Under the pieces are notes generated by a model. The model ran no database searches. It was given only the letters and a program-made list of their open reading frames with translations, and was not told where the DNA came from. This document shows positions 2,796 through 64,000 of a stretch of DNA of 64,000 nt, piece by piece. Each line of letters begins with the position of its first letter. Position 1 is the stretch's first letter. The stretch is from a bacterium (GTDB taxonomy: Bacteria > Patescibacteriota > Patescibacteriia > Patescibacteriales > UBA12465), in NCBI GenBank assembly GCA_035402985.1, contig DAONEH010000001.1, forward strand, positions 3,123 to 67,122, read 5' to 3'. The position numbers were made by a program, and so were the translations under genes.

Positions 2796-4220
2796 TTATT
2801 CAATAACACTGCGACCATCCGGCAAATCCTTTACTTTATATCCACGTTGTTCTAATTTTATTCGGACTTCATCGGCTTTAGCAAAATCTTTATTTTGACG
2901 AGCTATGGATCGATCCTCCAATAATTTAATGATATCATCTGGATAATTATTATCTATCTTTTTATTATCTTTATTATCTAACAATGAAGAAAAATTTAAA
3001 GCCCAAACATTATCAAAATCTAAAAGAGTAGCTAACTTATCTTCGTTAGATAAATTTGATTTTAATATATCGGAAATTAAAGATAATGATTTAGGAGTAT
3101 TAAAATCATCTAATAATGCTTCTAAAAATTTATCTTTAAAAACAGAATCAATTTCCCCAACTTCAACTCCTAATTTTTCTATTTTATTATAAATACCAGT
3201 TAAGCCTTTTTGCGCTGCTTTTAAAGCTTCAAAAGTAAAATTCTGTTTAGAACGATAATGAGCTTGTAAATAGAAATAACGTAAGGCCATTGGAGAAAAA
3301 TTTTTATTAATAATATCTTCTAAAGCAAAAGAAGTTCCTTGAGATTTAGACATTTTACCATTATCAATTAAAAGATGTTCATTATGTAACCAATAATTAG
3401 CTAATTTAACACCGCTCACAGCTTCACTTTGAGCAATTTCGTTACTATGATGAATACTTACATGTTCAATTCCACCCATATGAATATCAATAGTTTCTCC
3501 TAATAATTTTCTAATCATCGCCGAACATTCAATATGCCAACCTGGAAAACCATTACCATTTTCAACTAAAGGTGAAACAAAAGGTGATGGCCAAAATTGT
3601 AAAGCATTTTTATGAACACCGGCTCTAAAAAACCAAACAGCAAAATCTTGTGGATTTTTTTTCTTAGGATCATCAATTGCCGCTCGACCAGCTCCAATTT
3701 TATTCTTTTCTGGTTTACGACCTGATAATTGATTATAGTTTTTAAATTTATCAACTTCAAAATAAACAGCTAAGTCAGTAACATAAGCATAAGATTTAGC
3801 AATTAATAATTGAACCATATCAATCATCTCAGAAATATTTTCGGTAGCTCGTGGTTTAAATTTTGGTTCTAAAATATTTAATTTTTTTGTATCTTGCTCA
3901 TAAATATTAATAAATTTATTAACCACCTCTTCTGGCTTAATATTTTCTTTTTTAGCTGTTTTTTCTATTTTATCCTCCCCGATATCAGCATCAGAAGTTA
4001 AATGACCAACATCAGTATAATTTCTCGCCATAGAAACATCATAATTTAAATATTTAAAAGTACGATGTATAATATCAGCACAAAAAGAACCTCGTAAATT
4101 TCCGATATGTTGAGTTGAATAAACGGTTGGTCCACAATAATAAAAAGAAAGATGACCAGGTTGAAGTGGTTTAAATTCTTCTTTCTTTTTAGTTAAAGTA
4201 TTATATAATAATATTTTCAT
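2796..4220 (-). CDS. cysS: Cysteinyl-tRNA synthetase
   Basis: HIGH-type motif CGPTVYSTQHIGNLRG, KMSKS (GKMSKSQG) and a CysRS-like anticodon-binding C-terminus are present. Confidence 0.9.
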   Translation of the reverse strand: MKILLYNTLTKKKEEFKPLQPGHLSFYYCGPTVYSTQHIGNLRGSFCADIIHRTFKYLNYDVSMARNYTDVGHLTSDADIGEDKIEKTAKKENIKPEEVVNKFINIYEQDTKKLNILEPKFKPRATENISEMIDMVQLLIAKSYAYVTDLAVYFEVDKFKNYNQLSGRKPEKNKIGAGRAAIDDPKKKNPQDFAVWFFRAGVHKNALQFWPSPFVSPLVENGNGFPGWHIECSAMIRKLLGETIDIHMGGIEHVSIHHSNEIAQSEAVSGVKLANYWLHNEHLLIDNGKMSKSQGTSFALEDIINKNFSPMALRYFYLQAHYRSKQNFTFEALKAAQKGLTGIYNKIEKLGVEVGEIDSVFKDKFLEALLDDFNTPKSLSLISDILKSNLSNEDKLATLLDFDNVWALNFSSLLDNKDNKKIDNNYPDDIIKLLEDRSIARQNKDFAKADEVRIKLEQRGYKVKDLPDGRSVIE

Positions 4221-4221
4221 A

Positions 4222-5334
4222 TTAATTATTTGATATTTTTTTCATTAATTGATTATAAAACTCTAAATTGTTTAAACTAGCCCATTTTTGACCTAAAGAT
4301 TCATTAATTTTAAACAAATGATGTAAATAAGCTAAAGAATTACTATTTAATTCCTTTAGATTTGATTTTTTATTAATTAATTTAAAATCACTGGCTAAAG
4401 ACGACTTTTTGAGGCTTATTTCTTGGTAAAAATTGCCTGATTTTAAGCTTTTATCATTAAATTGGTATAATTTACCATGACGACCTTCTCGGGTTGGTAT
4501 AACGCAATCAAACATATTCCAGCCCATTTTATAACAACGATAGATATCATTAGGTGTACCAATACCTAAAGCAAACTTAATTTTGTCATCTGGAATGATT
4601 TTAGCAGTAAAATCCAAAATGTCAAACAAGAAATTCCCCTTTTCATCAACTGGTCGAGCCCCAAAACCATAACCAGCAAATTCAATACTTTCGTTTAAAA
4701 ATTTACTTCCACTTATTTCCATTAAAGCATCTAAACATTTTTTTCTAAGTTTTAAACTTAATCCCCCTTGAATTACAGCAATTAATTTCGGACGATTAGT
4801 TTCATTTAATTTTCTTTTCTTTATTTGTCTTATATATTCTTGATAACATCTTTTAGCCCAAGAAATAGTGCGATCAACTGATAAAGCAATTTTCTTTTCA
4901 TCAAAACCATAAGGTGTACAATCATCAAGGCATACCATAAAATCAGTTCCTAAATCAAATTGAATTTGAATTGATTTTTCTGGAGTTATCTCATGTTTAG
5001 ATCCATCTAGTGGTGATTTAAAAATTGCACCCTGATCACTAATTTTACCCATCTGACTATTTTTATGAATTAAAGAAAAAATTTGAAAACCACCACTATC
5101 AGATAATAATGGTTTATCCCAATTCATAAACTTATGTAGTCCCCCAGCTTTTTTTATAACTTTAATTCCAGGTTGTAAATATAAATGAAAAGTATTAACT
5201 ACTAAAGCTGATACCCCACTAGCTATTAAATCTTTTCTATCGCACATTTTTATAACTCCTCTAGTAGCATCGGGCATAAAAATAGGATATTTCAGAACAC
5301 CATGGGAAGTACTAATTTTTTTATTTTTATTCAT
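4222..5334 (-). CDS. tgt: Queuine tRNA-ribosyltransferase, lacking the canonical CxCxxC zinc site
   Basis: The DSGGFQ and FDCVIPTREGRHG catalytic motifs are present. At the position of the bacterial CxCxxC...H Zn motif, the C-terminal region reads LKELNSNSLAYLHHL with no cysteines. Confidence 0.85.
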   Translation of the reverse strand: MNKNKKISTSHGVLKYPIFMPDATRGVIKMCDRKDLIASGVSALVVNTFHLYLQPGIKVIKKAGGLHKFMNWDKPLLSDSGGFQIFSLIHKNSQMGKISDQGAIFKSPLDGSKHEITPEKSIQIQFDLGTDFMVCLDDCTPYGFDEKKIALSVDRTISWAKRCYQEYIRQIKKRKLNETNRPKLIAVIQGGLSLKLRKKCLDALMEISGSKFLNESIEFAGYGFGARPVDEKGNFLFDILDFTAKIIPDDKIKFALGIGTPNDIYRCYKMGWNMFDCVIPTREGRHGKLYQFNDKSLKSGNFYQEISLKKSSLASDFKLINKKSNLKELNSNSLAYLHHLFKINESLGQKWASLNNLEFYNQLMKKISNN

Positions 5335-17869: not shown

Positions 17870-18505
17870 TTAAACTCGACGAGGTTTTTTAGGACGACAA
17901 CCATTATGAGGAACACCGGTAGTATCTTTAATACTAGCAATTTCTAAACCATTAGCATTTAAAGCTCTAATAGCGGCTTCTCTACCAGTACCAACTCCAG
18001 CTACAAAAACCTTTACTTCCTCTAAACCATATTCTTCTTTAGCTTTTAAAACAGCAATTTTAGTAATTATTTGAGCAGCATACGGAGTTGCTTTTTTAGC
18101 ACCTTTAAAACCAGCCATACCCGCGCTAGCCCAAGAAATAACATTACCGCTTTTATCAGTTAAAGAGATAATAGTATTGTTATAAGTAGCATTAATATAG
18201 GCATGACCAGATTTTATTTTTATATTTTCCTTTTTCTTCTTTTTCTTTATTAATTTCTTTTTACTACGAGCTTGTTTATTTTTTTCTAATTTTTGTTTTA
18301 TTTCTTCTGGTAAATCTTCAATTTCATTTTTATTTTCATTTTTTAAATCATCATCAGAAAATAAATCATCATCGCTAGAATCAAAATCATCAGCTTCATC
18401 TACTAGAGCCATTTCATCTTTTTTATCCTCAGCTAAGGAATTATTTTTTTCATCCTTAACAATTTCTGTTTCAGGATTTGTTTTATCTTTTTTTTCTTCG
18501 GTCAT
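17870..18505 (-). CDS. rpsK: 30S ribosomal protein S11 with ~80-aa acidic/Lys-rich N-terminal extension
   Basis: The C-terminal 130 aa (...[14 protein letters not shown]...[16 protein letters not shown]) is S11. It is preceded by a D/E/K-rich low-complexity segment. Confidence 0.9.
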
Positions 18506-30644: not shown

Positions 30645-31115
30645 TTATACATTTTGTCCATTTAATATCGACTGTAGTTCCTTGACTTTTATCAATAGAG
30701 TTTTAGCATCTGTATGGGCTTGACCTAGTTCTGCCTCCGAAATTCCGATAAAATCACCATATTCGATCCTATTTCTTTTCTTTCTCATTTGTTGGAATCT
30801 TTGAAATTCATTACTGAGTTCGCCGTTAAGCAAAATGGCGGCAGCATTGATTACAATATAATGATGTCCTTCTCCACTTGTTTTCGCTCTATATCCGTTA
30901 ATTAACAATATAGCTTCACAGCATAATCTTATAGAATCATAGATGTTATTATACACAATATCCTCATCCCCAGTACCTATCCCGGACAAATTTTTATTTG
31001 CAAAATTATATAACCTGTCAGCCTTCTCAATTTTTATTTCAACCCCTTTTAAGCTGAACGAAAAAGGCTCAATAGAATTATTATTTAATAATGTTTGAAT
31101 CTCTTGTAAAATCAT
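30645..31115 (-). CDS. HEPN-domain protein (putative toxin of a HEPN/MNT pair)
   Basis: It is ~156 aa and all-helical, partnered with and overlapping by 35 nt an upstream minimal nucleotidyltransferase. The R-x4-6-H region reads RKKRNRIEYGD, with Y where the canonical H would sit. Confidence 0.65.
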   Translation of the reverse strand: MILQEIQTLLNNNSIEPFSFSLKGVEIKIEKADRLYNFANKNLSGIGTGDEDIVYNNIYDSIRLCCEAILLINGYRAKTSGEGHHYIVINAAAILLNGELSNEFQRFQQMRKKRNRIEYGDFIGISEAELGQAHTDAKTLLIKVKELQSILNGQNV

Positions 31116-31668
31116 ACGGGCTTCCTTTTAATTTAATTATTGGAGATAAAAATATATTAGATATAAAATTATTTTTTTCTTTGATTTTTTTAACAATTTC
31201 TTGACTACTGTAAATATGATAATTTATCTCTCTAGCAATTTTCCCTTCTAACGAACTTATCATGGTAATAAGGGCGTCTTGGTTTATATTTCCAATCAAC
31301 ATTAAATCAATATCGCTATTATTATTTTCTGTTCCCTTGGCTATTGATCCAAAAATAAAAGCACATTCAACATTATCAAGTTTATCAACTAACTTTTTCA
31401 ATTCATTTTCTAAACCAGATGTTTTTGAAATAATGCTTTTTATTTCTTCATAAAGCGGGTGTTCTTTATTTAATCTAAAAAAACGCATATTCCCGCGACG
31501 CTCATCTAATAATATCTTATCTTCCACTAAATTATCTAAATATTTTTGATAATGGCTTGGCTCTTTATTTAGATTTTTAGCGATTTCTCTAAAATAGTAT
31601 TCTTTGTCTGGATTTTTAAAAAATAACTCCATGATTTCTCCGCCGCCCTTTTTTAAAAAATTTAGCAT
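31081..31668 (-). CDS. Nucleotidyltransferase (MNT) with N-terminal winged HTH (putative antitoxin)
   Basis: FIFGSIAKGTENNNSDIDLMLIG is the minimal NTase motif GS-x9-13-D[IL]D. An N-terminal wHTH (YFREIAKNLNKEPSHYQKYLDNLVEDKIL) is also present. Confidence 0.8.
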   Translation of the reverse strand: MLNFLKKGGGEIMELFFKNPDKEYYFREIAKNLNKEPSHYQKYLDNLVEDKILLDERRGNMRFFRLNKEHPLYEEIKSIISKTSGLENELKKLVDKLDNVECAFIFGSIAKGTENNNSDIDLMLIGNINQDALITMISSLEGKIAREINYHIYSSQEIVKKIKEKNNFISNIFLSPIIKLKGSPYDFTRDSNIIK

Positions 31669-51654: not shown

Positions 51655-52224
51655 TTAAAAATGTTTTTTTTCAAAAATTAGGTTATTTAAATAACTTTTT
51701 TTAGGATTTAAAAAATAAAAAGAAATAATTACCCCAAAAAACATCCAGACTATTTCTAGTAATAAATTAAGCCAAAAATTACCACCAAACCAAGAAATTC
51801 CTAAAGAATTTTTATTAACTAAATAAATTAGAAAATAACTAAATAAATTATAAAAGATTGTTATAAATAAACTAACTACTAAAAATGAATAAATAGAACG
51901 ATTGGTAAAAAGGTTTTGCCAAAAAAAATTAGCTAAAACTATAGTTAATAGAAAAGAAAAAGTATATAAACCAAAAGGATAAAAAGAAAAAATATCCATA
52001 ATTATACCAATAATAAAAGAAAATAAAATTGATACTTTAAAATCACGAAAAATAAATAACCAAATAATAAAAAATAAAATTAAATCACAACGAGCCCAAA
52101 AACCAGACCAAGAATTTATTCCTGAAAATTGAATTAAAAATAAAATTAAAGCTAGAAGAATAAAACCAAAAATTTTAAAATATTTAGCCATATAAATACT
52201 ATTTAGGAATAATAACAGAAACAA
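51655..52224 (-). CDS. mreD: Rod shape-determining protein MreD (putative)
   Basis: It is a small polytopic membrane protein directly after mreC and overlapping it by 26 nt. Confidence 0.5.
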   Translation of the reverse strand: MFLLLFLNSIYMAKYFKIFGFILLALILFLIQFSGINSWSGFWARCDLILFFIIWLFIFRDFKVSILFSFIIGIIMDIFSFYPFGLYTFSFLLTIVLANFFWQNLFTNRSIYSFLVVSLFITIFYNLFSYFLIYLVNKNSLGISWFGGNFWLNLLLEIVWMFFGVIISFYFLNPKKSYLNNLIFEKKHF

Positions 52225-53005
52225 TACTTAAATTATTAACATCAAATAAAGCTTCAGCATTAACATCTTGCCAAATATCATTAACTTCTTGATTAATAAA
52301 ATTTATTCGACCAACAGCCAAACCTCGAGGAATATCTGGTTCCAAACCTGAAGTAATAATCATATCATTAATATTAAGAGTTTCGCTTTGAGAAACATAA
52401 TTAAGTTTAATTGATAAACCTAAATTCCCTTCAGCTAAACCAATACTATGATCAGAATTATTAGCTGTTACCGCCATTTTACAAAAATTATTACTAATAA
52501 GACAAAGTTTAGAATTTTTATTATTAACTTCAATTATTTTTCCAACAATTACACCAGATTCATTTATTACTGCTAAACCTGTTCTAATTCCATCGTCACT
52601 CCCCTTATTAATAATTAAATTTTGATTATAATTAGAAAAACTTAATAAATTTTCCTGCCAAACAACATTAGCTAAAACATAATCATAAGAATTACTTTCA
52701 AAAAAATTTAAATATTGTTTTAATTTTTCATTCTCTTCTTGTAAAGAATAAAATTTAGCTAACTCCGCTTCTTTAGATTCAATTTGACTTTTTAAAGTAG
52801 TGTTTTCATCAAGTAATTGAGCCTTAGTTGCTTTATTATCTGATTTTTTAGCCGAAGAACTTCTAAGGCTAGAACTAATAGAATTTACTAGTCCACCTAA
52901 AACTTTTTGACCAAAAGAAGAAAAACCAATGATATTTAAAAAAATAAGCAGTAAGACCACTGCCAAAAAAATCTTATACTTTTTTCTTCGTTGTAAAAAA
53001 TCCAT
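52199..53005 (-). CDS. mreC: Rod shape-determining protein MreC
   Basis: It has an N-terminal TM, a coiled coil (LKSQIESKEAELAKF...EENEKLKQ) and a C-terminal beta domain. It lies between mreB and mreD. Confidence 0.7.
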   Translation of the reverse strand: MDFLQRRKKYKIFLAVVLLLIFLNIIGFSSFGQKVLGGLVNSISSSLRSSSAKKSDNKATKAQLLDENTTLKSQIESKEAELAKFYSLQEENEKLKQYLNFFESNSYDYVLANVVWQENLLSFSNYNQNLIINKGSDDGIRTGLAVINESGVIVGKIIEVNNKNSKLCLISNNFCKMAVTANNSDHSIGLAEGNLGLSIKLNYVSQSETLNINDMIITSGLEPDIPRGLAVGRINFINQEVNDIWQDVNAEALFDVNNLSIVSVIIPK

Positions 53006-59416: not shown

Positions 59417-59983
59417 TTAAAATTTAACTTCGATATTTTCTTTTTGAGCTACATCTTCAATCTCAAAAAATTTTTTATCTGAAAAACCTAATTTATTAGC
59501 AATAATATTAGTTGGAAAAACTTGAACTTTAGTATTAAAGTCTTTAACGTTAGAATTATAAAAACGACGAGCAGCTTGAATTTTATTTTCTGTATCAGAT
59601 AATTCTTTTTGTAATTCTAAAAAATTTTGGTTAGCTTTTAAATCAGGATAATTTTCACTTAAAGCAAAAATTGATTTTAAAGTAGATGATAAAGTATTTT
59701 CAGCTTGTATTTTTTGATTAACATCAGAACTATTTTGTAAAGCCATAGCTTCATTTCTAGCTTGAATAACCTTTTCTAGTGTTTCTCTTTCATGAGTAGC
59801 ATAGCCTTTAACTGTCTCAACTAAATTAGGGATTAAATCATAACGTCTCTTAAGTTGAACATCAATATCACTCCAAGCCTCGTCAACTCGATTTTTTAAA
59901 CGAATTAGACCATTATACATAGAAATTAAAATAATCCCTATAATTAGTAAAACCGCTATAATGATCCATAAAGTTGTGTTCAT
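59417..59983 (-). CDS. lemA: LemA family protein
   Basis: RYDLIPNLVETVKGYATHE..TLE.V..AR is the LemA core, and an N-terminal TM is present. The track ORF extends to 60040 through a non-ATG start. ATG (MNTTLWIII...) at 59981-59983 is the likelier start and leaves the upstream hairpin intergenic. Confidence 0.8.
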   Translation of the reverse strand: MNTTLWIIIAVLLIIGIILISMYNGLIRLKNRVDEAWSDIDVQLKRRYDLIPNLVETVKGYATHERETLEKVIQARNEAMALQNSSDVNQKIQAENTLSSTLKSIFALSENYPDLKANQNFLELQKELSDTENKIQAARRFYNSNVKDFNTKVQVFPTNIIANKLGFSDKKFFEIEDVAQKENIEVKF

Positions 59984-60032
59984 ATTATTTAATTTAATTA
60001 TTAGCTTGATTATTATAACAAAAATATAATAA

Positions 60033-60062
60033 AAAAACAACCTATATTATAAGGTTGTTTTG
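60033..60062 (-). terminator. Hairpin terminator downstream of radical-SAM/NUDIX operon
   Basis: aaaaaacaacc tatattat aaggttgttttg is an 8-bp stem with T/A runs. Confidence 0.5.
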
Positions 60063-60132
60063 CATTATTAAATCTATTTTTGAACAAATATTGTTTACAA
60101 AACAATCTTTGAAATCAATTCTATGTTTGACA

Positions 60133-60834
60133 TCAAAATTCTAAAATACTTCTTAATTCTTCTTCACTGTCATTTATACCTCTCATCACGACACTTTTAA
60201 TAAAAACCTTATGCCCAATTCCTTTAGAACCAAGATATTTTATATTTTTAATCATTTTATTAAATTTTTTTAATTGACAATCTTCAGAAAACAAACCATT
60301 TAAATTTGTAATTTTATTCCATGTTTGAAAATTTAAAGAATTTACAGAAATACCAATTCTAGAAAAATGTTTATATATATTATCAACAATTATTTTATTT
60401 AATTCTATTCCATTTGTATGTATAGAAAATCTAATATTTTTGTGTTTCTTAATATATTTCAATAACCTAAAATCTTTTTTTAGAAAATCAGGATGTAGCA
60501 ACGGTTCTCCCCCGCTAAAATCTATTGATTTTAATGGAGTTTTTTAAAAAAAAGCATCCATCAACCTAAATAAATAATCAATATTAGTTGCTTTTTCAAA
60601 TTTTGAACTATAATTAGATCCCTCGTTAGAACAAAAAACGCACCACAAATTACACGAGGGAGTTAATGAAATTCTTAATCTAATTTTAGATAATATTTTA
60701 TTAAATTCTTTATCAGTTAGTCTGGAAATACCCTTGTTAACTAAAGATGTTTTTACTAAATCACAATACTTTCCAGAATCTTCTTTTCTCACAGTAGCAG
60801 AAGCTTCAGTTTTATATAAACTTTTTTTAATCAT
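60133..60834 (-). pseudogene. Radical SAM enzyme interrupted by a single in-frame TAA (at 60544-60546) inside a T8A6 homopolymer
   Basis: The N-terminal part ends ...SLTPSCNLWCVFCSNEG...LMDAFF* (CxxxCxxC). The same frame then continues KTPLKSIDFSGGEPLLHPDFLKKDF... (the GGEPLL motif) into the 122-aa C-terminal ORF. Confidence 0.6.
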
Positions 60835-61249
60835 ATTTTTTTATTAATCTTAAAGATTTTTTAAAATCTTCTAAAAAAACTAAATTAATCGCAGAATCTA
60901 GATCAACCCAAGAAAAATCAAAAAGCTCTCTTTCATCCAAAGAAGCTTTTTCGTTTTCATTCTCTAACCGACACAAGAAATGAAAAGATATTATATGAAA
61001 TTTCTTTTTTTTATTAATAAACTGATAAAATCCTATCATATCAGAAATATAAACATTAAGACCAGTTTCTTCCAAAATCTCCCTTTTTAAAGCTTTCTCT
61101 AAATTTTCTCCAAATTCAACATGACCACCTGGTATAGTAAAATTATTTTGAAGTTTTGATGTTTTTGCAATAAAAACCCTGTTATTACTGTCAAGAATAA
61201 TTCCAGCAACCCCTATTTGAATATTTTTTTCATTATCTTTTGTTTTCAT
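60827..61249 (-). CDS. NUDIX hydrolase
   Basis: The Nudix box GGHVEFGENLEKALKREILEETGL (G-x5-E-x7-REUXEEXGU) is present. Confidence 0.8.
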   Translation of the reverse strand: MKTKDNEKNIQIGVAGIILDSNNRVFIAKTSKLQNNFTIPGGHVEFGENLEKALKREILEETGLNVYISDMIGFYQFINKKKKFHIISFHFLCRLENENEKASLDERELFDFSWVDLDSAINLVFLEDFKKSLRLIKKYD

Positions 61250-61417
61250 AAAGTCTTATTATATTATTATAATAACACATTTTTTAATAAATAAAAAAAT
61301 ATAGACAATTAAGTATTTTATTTACTATTACCTTTACAAATTTCTATTAAAAAAACATAAAAATAATATTTCTCAACAAACACTATTACAAATTTTCAAA
61401 CTCTATAATAAAAAAGC

Positions 61418-61456
61418 CCCCATACAAACTTATCTGTATAGGAGTCTTTTTTATAA
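61418..61456 (-). terminator. Hairpin terminator after ileS
   Basis: aaaaaagcccccatacaaacttatctgtataggagtctttttt is an imperfect stem with flanking A/T runs. Confidence 0.4.
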
Positions 61457-61487
61457 TGATATTTGTATTATAAATTATACCTGTATT

Positions 61488-64000
61488 TTATTCTTTATTA
61501 ACAATAATAGTTACTATCTCTTTATCAATTTTAAACTCCTTACCAACTAAATTAGTATCTTCCCCGTTTAATATTATTTGAGAACTTAAAGTTTCTTTTT
61601 TGATATCTTCAATAAAAGTAGATAAAACTTCAGAAACAAATTTACTATCTGATTTAATAATAGCTAAGGCTTTATCATTAATAGATAAATCTAATTCTTT
61701 ACGCATTAAATTTATAAATCTAATTAATTCTCTCTTACCTCCTTCTAATTTTAATTCCGGAGTAATATTAGTATCTAATTCAACTTTTAAATCTCCCCCT
61801 TGTTCTATTACCTTAACTTGTTTAACATTTAATTCTTCAGCTATGATTGTTAAATAATTATCTGAATTTATCTTTAAATTATCTCCATAAATTAAAGCTT
61901 CTTGTAAAATTTGACGAACCTTGATATTAACTTTATCACGTTCAGCTAAACCTAATTCTACTATTTTTCGAACCTCAGACATAGAGTCAATAATAATATC
62001 ATCAGATTTATTTATTTGATATTGAGGCCAATTTTCTAAATGAACACTTTTATTTTCATCAGAAAAATTATAACCCAAAATTTTTTGCCAAAGATCTTCC
62101 GCTATAAACGGCATAAAAGGAGCCATAATTTTAGCTAAATTAATAAAAACAAAATTCATAGTAATTAGAGCTTCTTTTTTATCTATGTCATTATCACTTT
62201 TCAAACGATCTCGACTTCGTCTTAAATACCAAGTAGAAAATTCATCAATAAACTCAGTAATTGGTCGCATGGCCTTATTTAAATTATACATTAACATAGC
62301 TTCCTCTACTTCTTTTATTAATAAATTAATTTTAATTTTAATCCAAGAATCTAAAACATTAGAACTCTCTTTATATTTTGCAAAATCATCTTCATTTAAA
62401 ACATCAGCATACATTTGATAAAAATTATAAATATTATTTACTAACATAATATTTTTACGTAATGATTCCTCTACTCCCTTTTCAGAAAAATTTAAATTTT
62501 CAGCTTGAACTACTGGTGATGATAATAGATAAGCCCTTAAAGAATCAGCTCCATATTTATCAATAATCACCATCGGATCAGGATAATTTTTTAATTTTTT
62601 ACTCATCTTTTTACCATCCTCAGCTAAAACAATACCATTAGCAATAACATTATTAAAAGCTCTCTCATTTTTTACACCACCGGAAATAACATGAAGATAA
62701 TAAAACCAAGTTCGAGTTTGATCAATTCCTTCAGCAATAAATTCAGCTGGAAAATTCTTTTCAAACTTTTCTTTATTTTCAAAAGGATAATGAAGTTGAG
62801 CATAAGGCATGGAACCACTTTCAAACCAACAATCTAAAACATCTGGCACACGTTGCATAATTTGACCACATTTTGAACAAGGAAAATTTATTTTATCAAC
62901 TTTATCTTTATGAATATCAGTAATGGTTTGACCACTTAAATCTTCTAATTCTTTAACACTACTTATGACCTTTCTTTCACCACAAGAACATTCCCAAATA
63001 GGCATAGCACTAGCCCAAAATCTTTGACGAGAAATTGACCAATCACGAGCTCCTTCTAACCAATTACCAAAACGACCATTCTTGATATGAGATGGTGACC
63101 AATTAATATTTTCAGCTGATTTAAGTAAATTATCTTTTATCTTAGTAACACTAACAAACCAAGAAGAAGTGGCATAATTAATTAAAGGAGTATCACAACG
63201 CCAACAATGAGGATAACTATGTTCATATTTTTCTTTAGAAAATAATAATCCTTGTCCCGCTAAATATTTAATAACTTCAATATCAGTTGATGAGTGGTCA
63301 TCAATTGGTTTTACATTTAATTTTGGGAAATCTTTAACTTCATCCTTGAAAGAACCATCTAAATTAACATGTTGAACAAAAGGTAAATTATTTTCTTTAC
63401 CTAAATCCATATCATCTTGACCAAAAGCGGGAGCAATATGAACAATTCCAGTTCCCTCGTCGGTTGTAACAAAACTTGCTGGATAAATTTTCCAACCATT
63501 TTCTCGATTAATTATTTTATCGTCATTAATATAATAATTAAATAAGGCTTTATATTTTTTTCCTATTAAATCTGCTCCTTTAAATTCATCGACTATTTCA
63601 TATTTTTTATCTGTCATTACTTCAGCTAAACGTTCTTTAGCTAAAATATATTTTTCAGTTTTATCATTTTCATTTTGATAAGATATTTTAATATAATCAA
63701 TATCAGCTCCAATAGCTAAAGCTACGTTACCAATTAAAGTCCAAGGGGTAGTAGTCCAAGCTAAAACAAAAGTATCAACTTCATCAAGTAATTCAAATTT
63801 AGCAATACAAGATAAATCTTTTATATCTTTATACCCTTCAGCTACTTCTGATTGCGATAAAGTAGTTTCACAACGTGGACAAACATGCATTGAGCGATAA
63901 TCTTTATAGATTAAACCTTTATCCCATAATTGTTTAAAAACCCACCAAATAGACTCCATAAAAGATAAATCCATAGTATGGTAAGCATTCTCTTTATCAA
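61488..64000 (-). CDS. ileS: Isoleucyl-tRNA synthetase, 5'-partial (N-terminus beyond window end)
   Basis: The ORF is open to the window edge. The window contains the CP1 editing and anticodon-binding regions and the KMSKS-like GKKMSKKLKNYP. WCPRCETTLS is typical of IleRS. Confidence 0.9.
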   Translation of the reverse strand, partial: DKENAYHTMDLSFMESIWWVFKQLWDKGLIYKDYRSMHVCPRCETTLSQSEVAEGYKDIKDLSCIAKFELLDEVDTFVLAWTTTPWTLIGNVALAIGADIDYIKISYQNENDKTEKYILAKERLAEVMTDKKYEIVDEFKGADLIGKKYKALFNYYINDDKIINRENGWKIYPASFVTTDEGTGIVHIAPAFGQDDMDLGKENNLPFVQHVNLDGSFKDEVKDFPKLNVKPIDDHSSTDIEVIKYLAGQGLLFSKEKYEHSYPHCWRCDTPLINYATSSWFVSVTKIKDNLLKSAENINWSPSHIKNGRFGNWLEGARDWSISRQRFWASAMPIWECSCGERKVISSVKELEDLSGQTITDIHKDKVDKINFPCSKCGQIMQRVPDVLDCWFESGSMPYAQLHYPFENKEKFEKNFPAEFIAEGIDQTRTWFYYLHVISGGVKNERAFNNVIANGIVLAEDGKKMSKKLKNYPDPMVIIDKYGADSLRAYLLSSPVVQAENLNFSEKGVEESLRKNIMLVNNIYNFYQMYADVLNEDDFAKYKESSNVLDSWIKIKINLLIKEVEEAMLMYNLNKAMRPITEFIDEFSTWYLRRSRDRLKSDNDIDKKEALITMNFVFINLAKIMAPFMPFIAEDLWQKILGYNFSDENKSVHLENWPQYQINKSDDIIIDSMSEVRKIVELGLAERDKVNIKVRQILQEALIYGDNLKINSDNYLTIIAEELNVKQVKVIEQGGDLKVELDTNITPELKLEGGKRELIRFINLMRKELDLSINDKALAIIKSDSKFVSEVLSTFIEDIKKETLSSQIILNGEDTNLVGKEFKIDKEIVTIIVNKE

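Follow-up and report, generated by a model that had tools for sequence, protein, structure and literature searches.

A probable recently inactivated pseudogene of a MoaA-like radical SAM gene, marked by a nonsense codon and a deletion

Of the described radical SAM enzymes, MoaA and the prokaryotic viperins (pVips) score best against the protein family considered here, both below their curated cut-offs. MoaA carries a C-terminal double-glycine tail and is encoded in a Moco-biosynthesis gene context. Two of its cysteines, C261 and C264, ligate an auxiliary [4Fe-4S] cluster that binds GTP. We analyzed a relative of these enzymes on the minus strand (60834..60133) of a 64-kb window, the whole stretch of DNA under study, which is densely coding and has a G+C content of 26.6%. 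The feature is very probably what is left of a MoaA-like radical SAM gene that recently became a pseudogene, struck by a nonsense mutation and a deletion. A true nonsense pseudogene of a non-essential gene was among the readings offered by the initial annotation, and it is now favored by an intact gene in a close relative, by lesions shared among independent contigs, and by loss of the gene in a third lineage.

Translation of 60834..60133 (minus strand) places the feature in a single frame consisting of 96 codons, one internal stop, 136 codons, and a terminal TGA (60135..60133), and reading MIKK...TPSCNLWCVFCSNEG...LMDAFF-stop-KTPLKSIDFSGGEPLLHPDF...EELRSILEF-stop. The CxxxCxxC radical SAM cluster motif (CNLWCVFC; 60631..60654, minus strand) is unbroken and lies 5′ of the internal stop, while KTPLKSIDFSGGEPLLHPDF follows the stop directly and GGEPLL appears downstream in the same frame. 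This agrees with the initial annotation, which had placed CxxxCxxC upstream and GGE downstream of the stop in one frame with no frameshift. Over the joined sequence, Pfam recognizes a Radical_SAM domain (8.7e-21). The start of the remnant overlaps by 8 nt the co-oriented, intact NUDIX hydrolase gene (61249..60827, minus strand; Pfam NUDIX domain), the first gene of the unit, as had also been reported. In the list of open reading frames, the remnant is split into a 96-aa ORF (60834..60544) and a 122-aa ORF (60501..60133), the latter of which becomes 130 aa with another choice of start. The NCBI record of the MAG carries the fragments as HPT08137.1 ("hypothetical protein", 96 aa) and HPT08136.1 ("radical SAM protein", 130 aa). 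Only the 96-aa piece keeps the SAM-cluster motif, which the 122-aa piece lacks; the 96-aa piece is in turn without the GGE motif and the remaining SAM-binding barrel, and neither piece has the C-terminal cysteines of the family. These two leftover ORFs are annotation fragments, not genes.

Clustering at 90% identity groups the downstream fragment with one intact orthologue. This full-length protein (P0080, 393 aa) is encoded on the 4888-bp Logan contig SRR8925806_1823 (L001) and is uninterrupted, with 94% amino acid identity to the remnant and 91.5% nucleotide identity. On L001, the gene order is NUDIX (262–684), radical SAM 1 (P0080; 677–1858), radical SAM 2 (331 aa; 1845–2840), DUF2064 (229 aa; 2847–3536), a GreA-like gene (165 aa; 3638–4135), and a dTMP-kinase-like gene (228 aa; 4132–4818). 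Searching for homologues gave 76 proteins, almost all of them 383–407 aa long (about 392) and 48–65% identical; those with a named source come from Patescibacteria (Falkowbacteria and others) and from some bins labelled DPANN. The matches cover approximately 96% of the query, which corresponds to only the first ~233 residues of the homologues. Measured against the length of about 392 aa seen in ~70 homologues, the window copy is interrupted by TAA at codon 97 and ends at codon 233, so that codons 1–233 of an ancestral 393 are left. Because ~70 homologues are full-length and the gene context is conserved, we take the full-length state to be ancestral. The comparison with orthologues in sister genomes proposed earlier came out the same way, as P0080 of the close relative is uninterrupted and the stop is absent from the ~70 full-length homologues.

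In the family alignment, the C-terminal 160 residues that the window lacks are well conserved; C310, C316, C319, and C341 are nearly invariant there, and two motifs, FHPKFLEFEPQ and SREYLM, occur. The initial annotation had the rest of the barrel following the internal stop, a description that fails because the frame ends 160 codons short of the ~392-aa family length. In a profile search of PDB sequences, positions 51–316 of the family profile aligned with S. aureus MoaA, and the conserved family CxxC fell on its C261-x-x-C264.

Intact relatives resemble MoaA (TIGR02666; PDB 1TV7) in the N-terminal CxxxCxxC, in GGE, and in the C-terminal CxxC that aligns with Cys261 and Cys264. They differ from MoaA in carrying a conserved N-terminal extension of ~50 residues and in ending with ...KYEFK (e.g., ...NKEKKYEFK) with no terminal Gly-Gly, and their genes lie beside a paralogue and DUF2064, not beside moaB–E, with no Moco-biosynthesis gene as a neighbor. 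Of the two MoaA cluster sites, the window remnant retains only the N-terminal motif, the C-terminal cysteines having been deleted. Against the MoaA model of NCBIfam (TIGR02666; cut-off 284 bits), the remnant scores 80.9 bits, radical SAM 1 94.1 bits, and radical SAM 2 118 bits. The prokaryotic viperin model (NF038283; cut-off 180) gives 63 bits for radical SAM 1 and 50 bits for radical SAM 2, the PFLA model (cut-off 232) gives 50 bits for radical SAM 1 (48–50 with the remnant included), and NrdG2 (cut-off 131) gives 32 bits for radical SAM 1. No QueE family occurs among the best 25 NCBIfam matches of either the remnant or P0080. Neither radical SAM protein thus reaches any curated NCBIfam cut-off, and MoaA and viperin are the best matches. 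On this basis, radical SAM 1 is best regarded as an uncharacterized sister family of MoaA and not as MoaA itself.

The other described enzymes compare less well. An identity as QueE, NrdG, or PflA is ruled out by scores far below the cut-offs and by the 393-aa length of the intact protein; these enzymes share the radical SAM superfamily core with the family, and their similar length arises solely through truncation of the remnant. The initial proposal of an activase of QueE/NrdG-like size was therefore wrong, misled by a truncation product (~393 aa when intact), and the HMM classification into QueE, NrdG, or PflA that it had suggested assigns the protein to no such subfamily, with MoaA scoring best, below its cut-off. 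Classification of the enzyme should not rely on the 233 codons of the remnant. The family shares with pVips (NF038283; PADLOC PDLC02903/4) the radical SAM core (63–66 bits) and nucleotide-related neighbors (NUDIX and dTMP-kinase-like), as in kinase-associated pVips. However, the matches are confined to the core (e.g., profile positions 5–147 of 257) and do not reach the cut-off of 180 set by NCBIfam, and the family protein is ~100 residues longer, with MoaA-like C-terminal cysteines. A defense role is unsupported, as a PADLOC search for known defense systems yielded only weak, partial matches to the pVip core.

Two lesions separate the window copy from L001. By BLASTN, window positions 61513..60134 match L001 6..1377 (91.5%), and 60144..59972 match L001 4716..4888 (94.8%). 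Base-by-base comparison shows that the heptamer AATTTTG occurs twice in L001 (1371–1377 and 4720–4726) and once in the window (60140..60134). The repeat is doubled in L001 and single in the window, so that 3349 bp were lost from the window lineage between 7-bp direct repeats, leaving a junction with 7 bp of microhomology at 60134..60140 (minus strand). At this point, L001 reads GAA TTT TGT AAT AAG (E F C N K) and the window GAA TTT TGA TGT. The terminal TGA of the remnant (60135..60133), which spans the junction, was accordingly made by the deletion, since L001 continues with TGT where the window has TGA. The event took the whole of radical SAM 2 and of the DUF2064 and GreA-like genes, together with codons 234–393 of radical SAM 1 and ~196 codons of the kinase-like gene. 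It probably occurred by a microhomology-mediated or slipped-strand mechanism.

What survives beyond the junction is an orphan 3′ tail of the dTMP-kinase-like gene (60042..60133, minus strand), comprising the last ~32 codons and the stop, which matches residues 194–228 of the L001 protein by tblastn (91% identity) and is out of frame with the remnant. A terminator-like hairpin with a T run (60034..60061, minus strand), which closed the ancestral operon, now stands 3′ of the NUDIX gene and the remnants. Second copies of the lost cluster genes are not present in the 64-kb window. The GreA-like gene and most of the dTMP-kinase-like gene were also removed by the deletion, and the products of both are weak matches to their families, scoring below the respective cut-offs. 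The initial annotation had described one nonsense TAA at a T-run/A-run junction; the single internal TAA (60546..60544) stands, but the 3349-bp deletion had been missed as a second lesion.

The internal TAA (60544..60546, minus strand) replaces an ancestral AAA (Lys97), as judged from L001 and from the family alignment, in which Lys predominates at this column. It lies in a T8A6 tract (60540..60553, minus strand; T8 at 60553..60546 and A6 at 60545..60540) that is T5A8 in the intact relative. The window reads GAT GCT TTT TTT TAA AAA ACT and L001 reads GAT GCG TTT TTA AAA AAA ACT, encoding D A F L K K T and thus the stretch AFLKKT. Three changes fall within 8 nt, namely a synonymous G>T, an A>T giving L96F, and an A>T converting Lys97 to a stop, and all three lengthen the T run. 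Transient-misalignment ("dislocation") mutagenesis produces substitutions at homopolymer borders that copy the base of the run, and the junction substitutions probably arose through such transient misalignment. The tract context itself is unremarkable, as the window contains 21 tracts of at least five T followed by at least five A. An alternative genetic code in which TAA is a sense codon was also considered and is ruled out. TAA ends 43 of the 50 window ORFs of at least 150 codons, the NUDIX gene included (TAG ends five and TGA two), and it is therefore not a sense codon in the source organism.

A stop inside a 14-nt homopolymer pair sits in an error-prone context, and the initial annotation had raised the possibility of an assembly or homopolymer artefact, in which case the T/A junction would in truth hold a sense codon, either AAA or TTA, within an intact gene. 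An exact-sequence look-up of the 96-aa product found eight contigs, of which five were compared (L002–L006, respectively Logan SRR5007244; JGI 3300009694; ENA ERZ795026, with a SPAdes-style name; JGI 3300025858; and ENA ERZ27257449, with a MEGAHIT-style name). A cluster mate supplied the sixth, L007 (Logan SRR25925564). The T8A6/TAA sequence is identical in all six contigs, which derive from separate samples and assemblers (Logan, JGI, SPAdes, MEGAHIT), and in the window. Where the seven sequences overlap within the remnant, which two of the contigs cover partly, the only difference is a single-base insertion in L007. The contigs are not copies of a single sequence, because a G/A SNP at window position 60926 (minus strand), inside the NUDIX gene, divides the window and L002 from L003–L006, and because L007 has additional differences in lemA. 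Both lesions are common to at least two haplotypes of the strain group. Homopolymer errors, moreover, are indels and not two precise length-keeping substitutions, and the NCBI MAG record annotates the same two fragments. Finally, the 3.3-kb deletion is present in every contig that reaches the junction (L002, L005, L006, and L007) and truncates the gene anyway. We consider an artefact close to inconceivable, and the agreement among contigs indicates that the stop is real.

In L007, both the TAA and the deletion are present, together with an extra T in the T6 run of TGC GTT TTT TGT. The insertion shifts the frame inside CxxxCxxC, such that the product (P0082) ends ...CNLWCVFLF-stop. This change fits continued decay, of which it is the only sign, although it could be an error of the Logan assembly.

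A functional enzyme might still be produced at a low or switchable level through stop-codon readthrough, ribosomal or transcriptional slippage on U8A6, or phase variation, and readthrough as a control point had been put forward in the initial annotation. U8A6 is indeed slippery, the reading frame continues unchanged beyond the stop, and dN/dS is low. However, a +1 slip yields AFFLKNSIKINRF-stop and a −1 slip AFFKKLH-stop, with termination within 12 and 7 codons, respectively, so only true readthrough could help. Even then, translation would terminate at the junction TGA; the readthrough product would lack the 160 C-terminal residues with their conserved cysteines, and its partners radical SAM 2 and DUF2064 are gone. 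The stop is confined to one strain group, being absent from L001 and the ~70 homologues, and it is the main stop codon of the long window ORFs. RNA structure that could stimulate readthrough was not significant downstream of the stop (z = −1.3). Phase variation is opposed by a tract length identical in all seven sequences and by the nature of the lesion, a substitution that leaves the frame unchanged. Regulated expression is consequently very unlikely, and recent inactivation of the gene is the better account.

The Nei–Gojobori comparison with L001 bears on when that inactivation occurred. For the remnant, dN/dS is 0.086 (dS 0.27; 13 nonsynonymous and 31 synonymous changes), and for the NUDIX gene it is 0.196 (dS 0.17; 11 nonsynonymous and 12 synonymous changes). 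Neutral drift over half of the remnant's branch would be expected to add ~38 nonsynonymous changes. Given a dN/dS this low against that expectation, purifying selection seems to have acted on the gene through almost the whole period after the two lineages diverged, and radical SAM 1 would have been inactivated recently.

Taken alone, a dN/dS of 0.086 would also fit continued purifying selection on the fragment. A short radical SAM core, or a 96-aa piece translationally coupled to NUDIX, could have been co-opted and keep some function; in line with this, the remnant's start still overlaps NUDIX, there are other short homologues (P0039, 249 aa; P0075, 164 aa), and a GGAG-like sequence stands 5 nt before the TTG of the 122-aa ORF. 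The GGAG sequence, however, derives from the conserved GGE codons, and each piece lacks what the other retains: the 96-aa piece is without GGE and the rest of the barrel, and the 122-aa piece is without the cluster motif. The low ratio is itself expected if the gene has been inactive for no more than the final few percent of the branch. That the fragment is still under selection is disfavored because the auxiliary-cluster region and both partners are lost, because L007 tolerates a frameshift within CxxxCxxC, and because a sister lineage underwent a near-total deletion that kept NUDIX but just 17 codons of the gene. We leave co-option a slim chance, and the remnant is presumably without function.

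The sister lineage is represented by three contigs (L008–L010; ENA ERZ27247350, JGI 3300014204, and ENA ERZ27247358) that are 97–98.7% identical to L001 and lack L001 729..4586 (3858 bp; scar at, e.g., L008:1143–1203). This deletion has other breakpoints and no evident microhomology, and it leaves 17 codons of radical SAM 1. The cluster was thus lost at least twice among very close relatives and is therefore dispensable, whereas the NUDIX gene is retained in all three lineages.

Incomplete copies occur elsewhere in the family as well. In a distant Patescibacteria genome (L029:6001–6290), a radical SAM 1 remnant spans residues 10–99 and gives way to unrelated sequence. Homology ends 1–3 nt after a T5A7 tract of its own (...CTT TTT AAA AAA ACT C|GG GGC), at the site of the window's stop; the break may be a coincidence or may reflect a fragile tract. 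L030:3482–3880 contains residues 1–78 only. The short homologues P0039 and P0075 sit on long contigs.

In intact loci, radical SAM 1 belongs to a conserved set of genes. Radical SAM 1 and radical SAM 2 are paralogues with ~31–35% identity. In a GTDB scan, all 15 intact loci had radical SAM 2 directly 3′ of radical SAM 1, and DUF2064 came next in each of the 14 whose contig was long enough. GreA-like and/or kinase-like genes are nearby in most intact loci, and NUDIX is upstream solely in the closest relatives, L011 (Falkowbacteria) and L025. The intact triad loci comprise L001:677–3536 and L011–L025 (e.g., L011:6001–8838), in genomes of Patescibacteria or labelled DPANN; among named loci in the scan, the closest ones sharing the gene order belong to Candidatus Falkowbacteria and Patescibacteria. 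The DUF2064 protein scores 85 bits against TIGR04282 (cut-off 134), has a weak CofC match, and matches PDB 3CGX, a "putative nucleotide-diphospho-sugar transferase"; the protein would be like a nucleotidyl- or glycosyl-transferase. Three loci in Nanoarchaeota- and Woesearchaeota-labelled genomes (L026–L028; e.g., L026:6001–7571) have one radical SAM gene with DUF2064 directly behind it, a two-gene version of the module, and this lone radical SAM is closer to radical SAM 2 (37% identity). In L013 (8194–8861), the DUF2064 gene matches in two overlapping pieces in different frames, which suggests a frameshift.

A literature search for DUF2064/TIGR04282 with radical SAM enzymes, or for MoaA-like enzymes of CPR and DPANN, found nothing relevant. 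From the neighboring genes and the affinity to MoaA and viperin, we speculate that the lost module was a nucleotide (probably GTP or NTP) modifying pathway. A bolder reading, which we think unlikely, is that the cluster from NUDIX to the kinase-like gene is a strain-variable island for an undescribed two-radical-SAM modified-nucleotide pathway of Patescibacteria and DPANN, with, for example, an antiviral or signaling role. If that were true, the window would keep the scar of a recent loss, and the repeated deletions would reflect the cost-benefit turnover typical of defense genes.

The remainder of the window was surveyed for comparable features. General pseudogenization of the window was considered and rejected, as the ORF pairs at 30645–31668 and 51655–53005 look like separate normal genes by Pfam, the latter being MreC/MreD and the former a nucleotidyltransferase and its partner. 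At 30645–31668 (minus strand), the 195-aa Polbeta/NTP_transf_2 nucleotidyltransferase ORF overlaps a 156-aa ORF by 35 nt in another frame; the 156-aa ORF has no Pfam match, and the pair could be toxin–antitoxin-like or a frameshifted gene. The ribosomal protein S11 ORF (17870–18505, minus strand) is listed at 211 aa with the S11 domain at residues 100–210 only, reflecting either an over-called start or an N-terminal extension of ~100 residues. ARAGORN found no tRNA or tmRNA genes in the 64 kb, and no Rfam family reached its gathering score in the window.

Our results point to an ancestor in which NUDIX, radical SAM 1 (393 aa), radical SAM 2 (331 aa), a DUF2064/TIGR04282-like transferase, and the GreA-like and dTMP-kinase-like genes were co-directional. 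One lesion was the 3349-bp deletion between the two 7-bp AATTTTG repeats, creating an in-frame TGA at the junction. The other was the clustered substitutions at T5A8 that turned Leu96-Lys97 (TTA AAA) into Phe-stop (TTT TAA). The locus matches an ordinary bacterial pseudogene in its premature stop, its short-repeat deletion, the intact copy in a relative, the loss in a sister lineage, and the additional lesions, and it is unusual only in that its nonsense codon came from clustered substitutions at a T/A junction that lengthened the T run. The remnant is an ordinary pseudogene from an accessory, uncharacterized MoaA-like family.

Together, these findings have a practical side and a biological one. 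HPT08137.1 and HPT08136.1 are annotated as separate proteins and should be flagged as one pseudogene. The conserved radical SAM/radical SAM/DUF2064 triad of CPR and DPANN, absent from the window, may merit separate study. Among three lineages that are all >90% identical, this accessory cluster of five genes is intact in one, deleted at one breakpoint pair in another, and deleted at a different pair in the third. The locus provides a compact and clear-cut illustration of ongoing gene loss in a reduced genome with 26.6% G+C.
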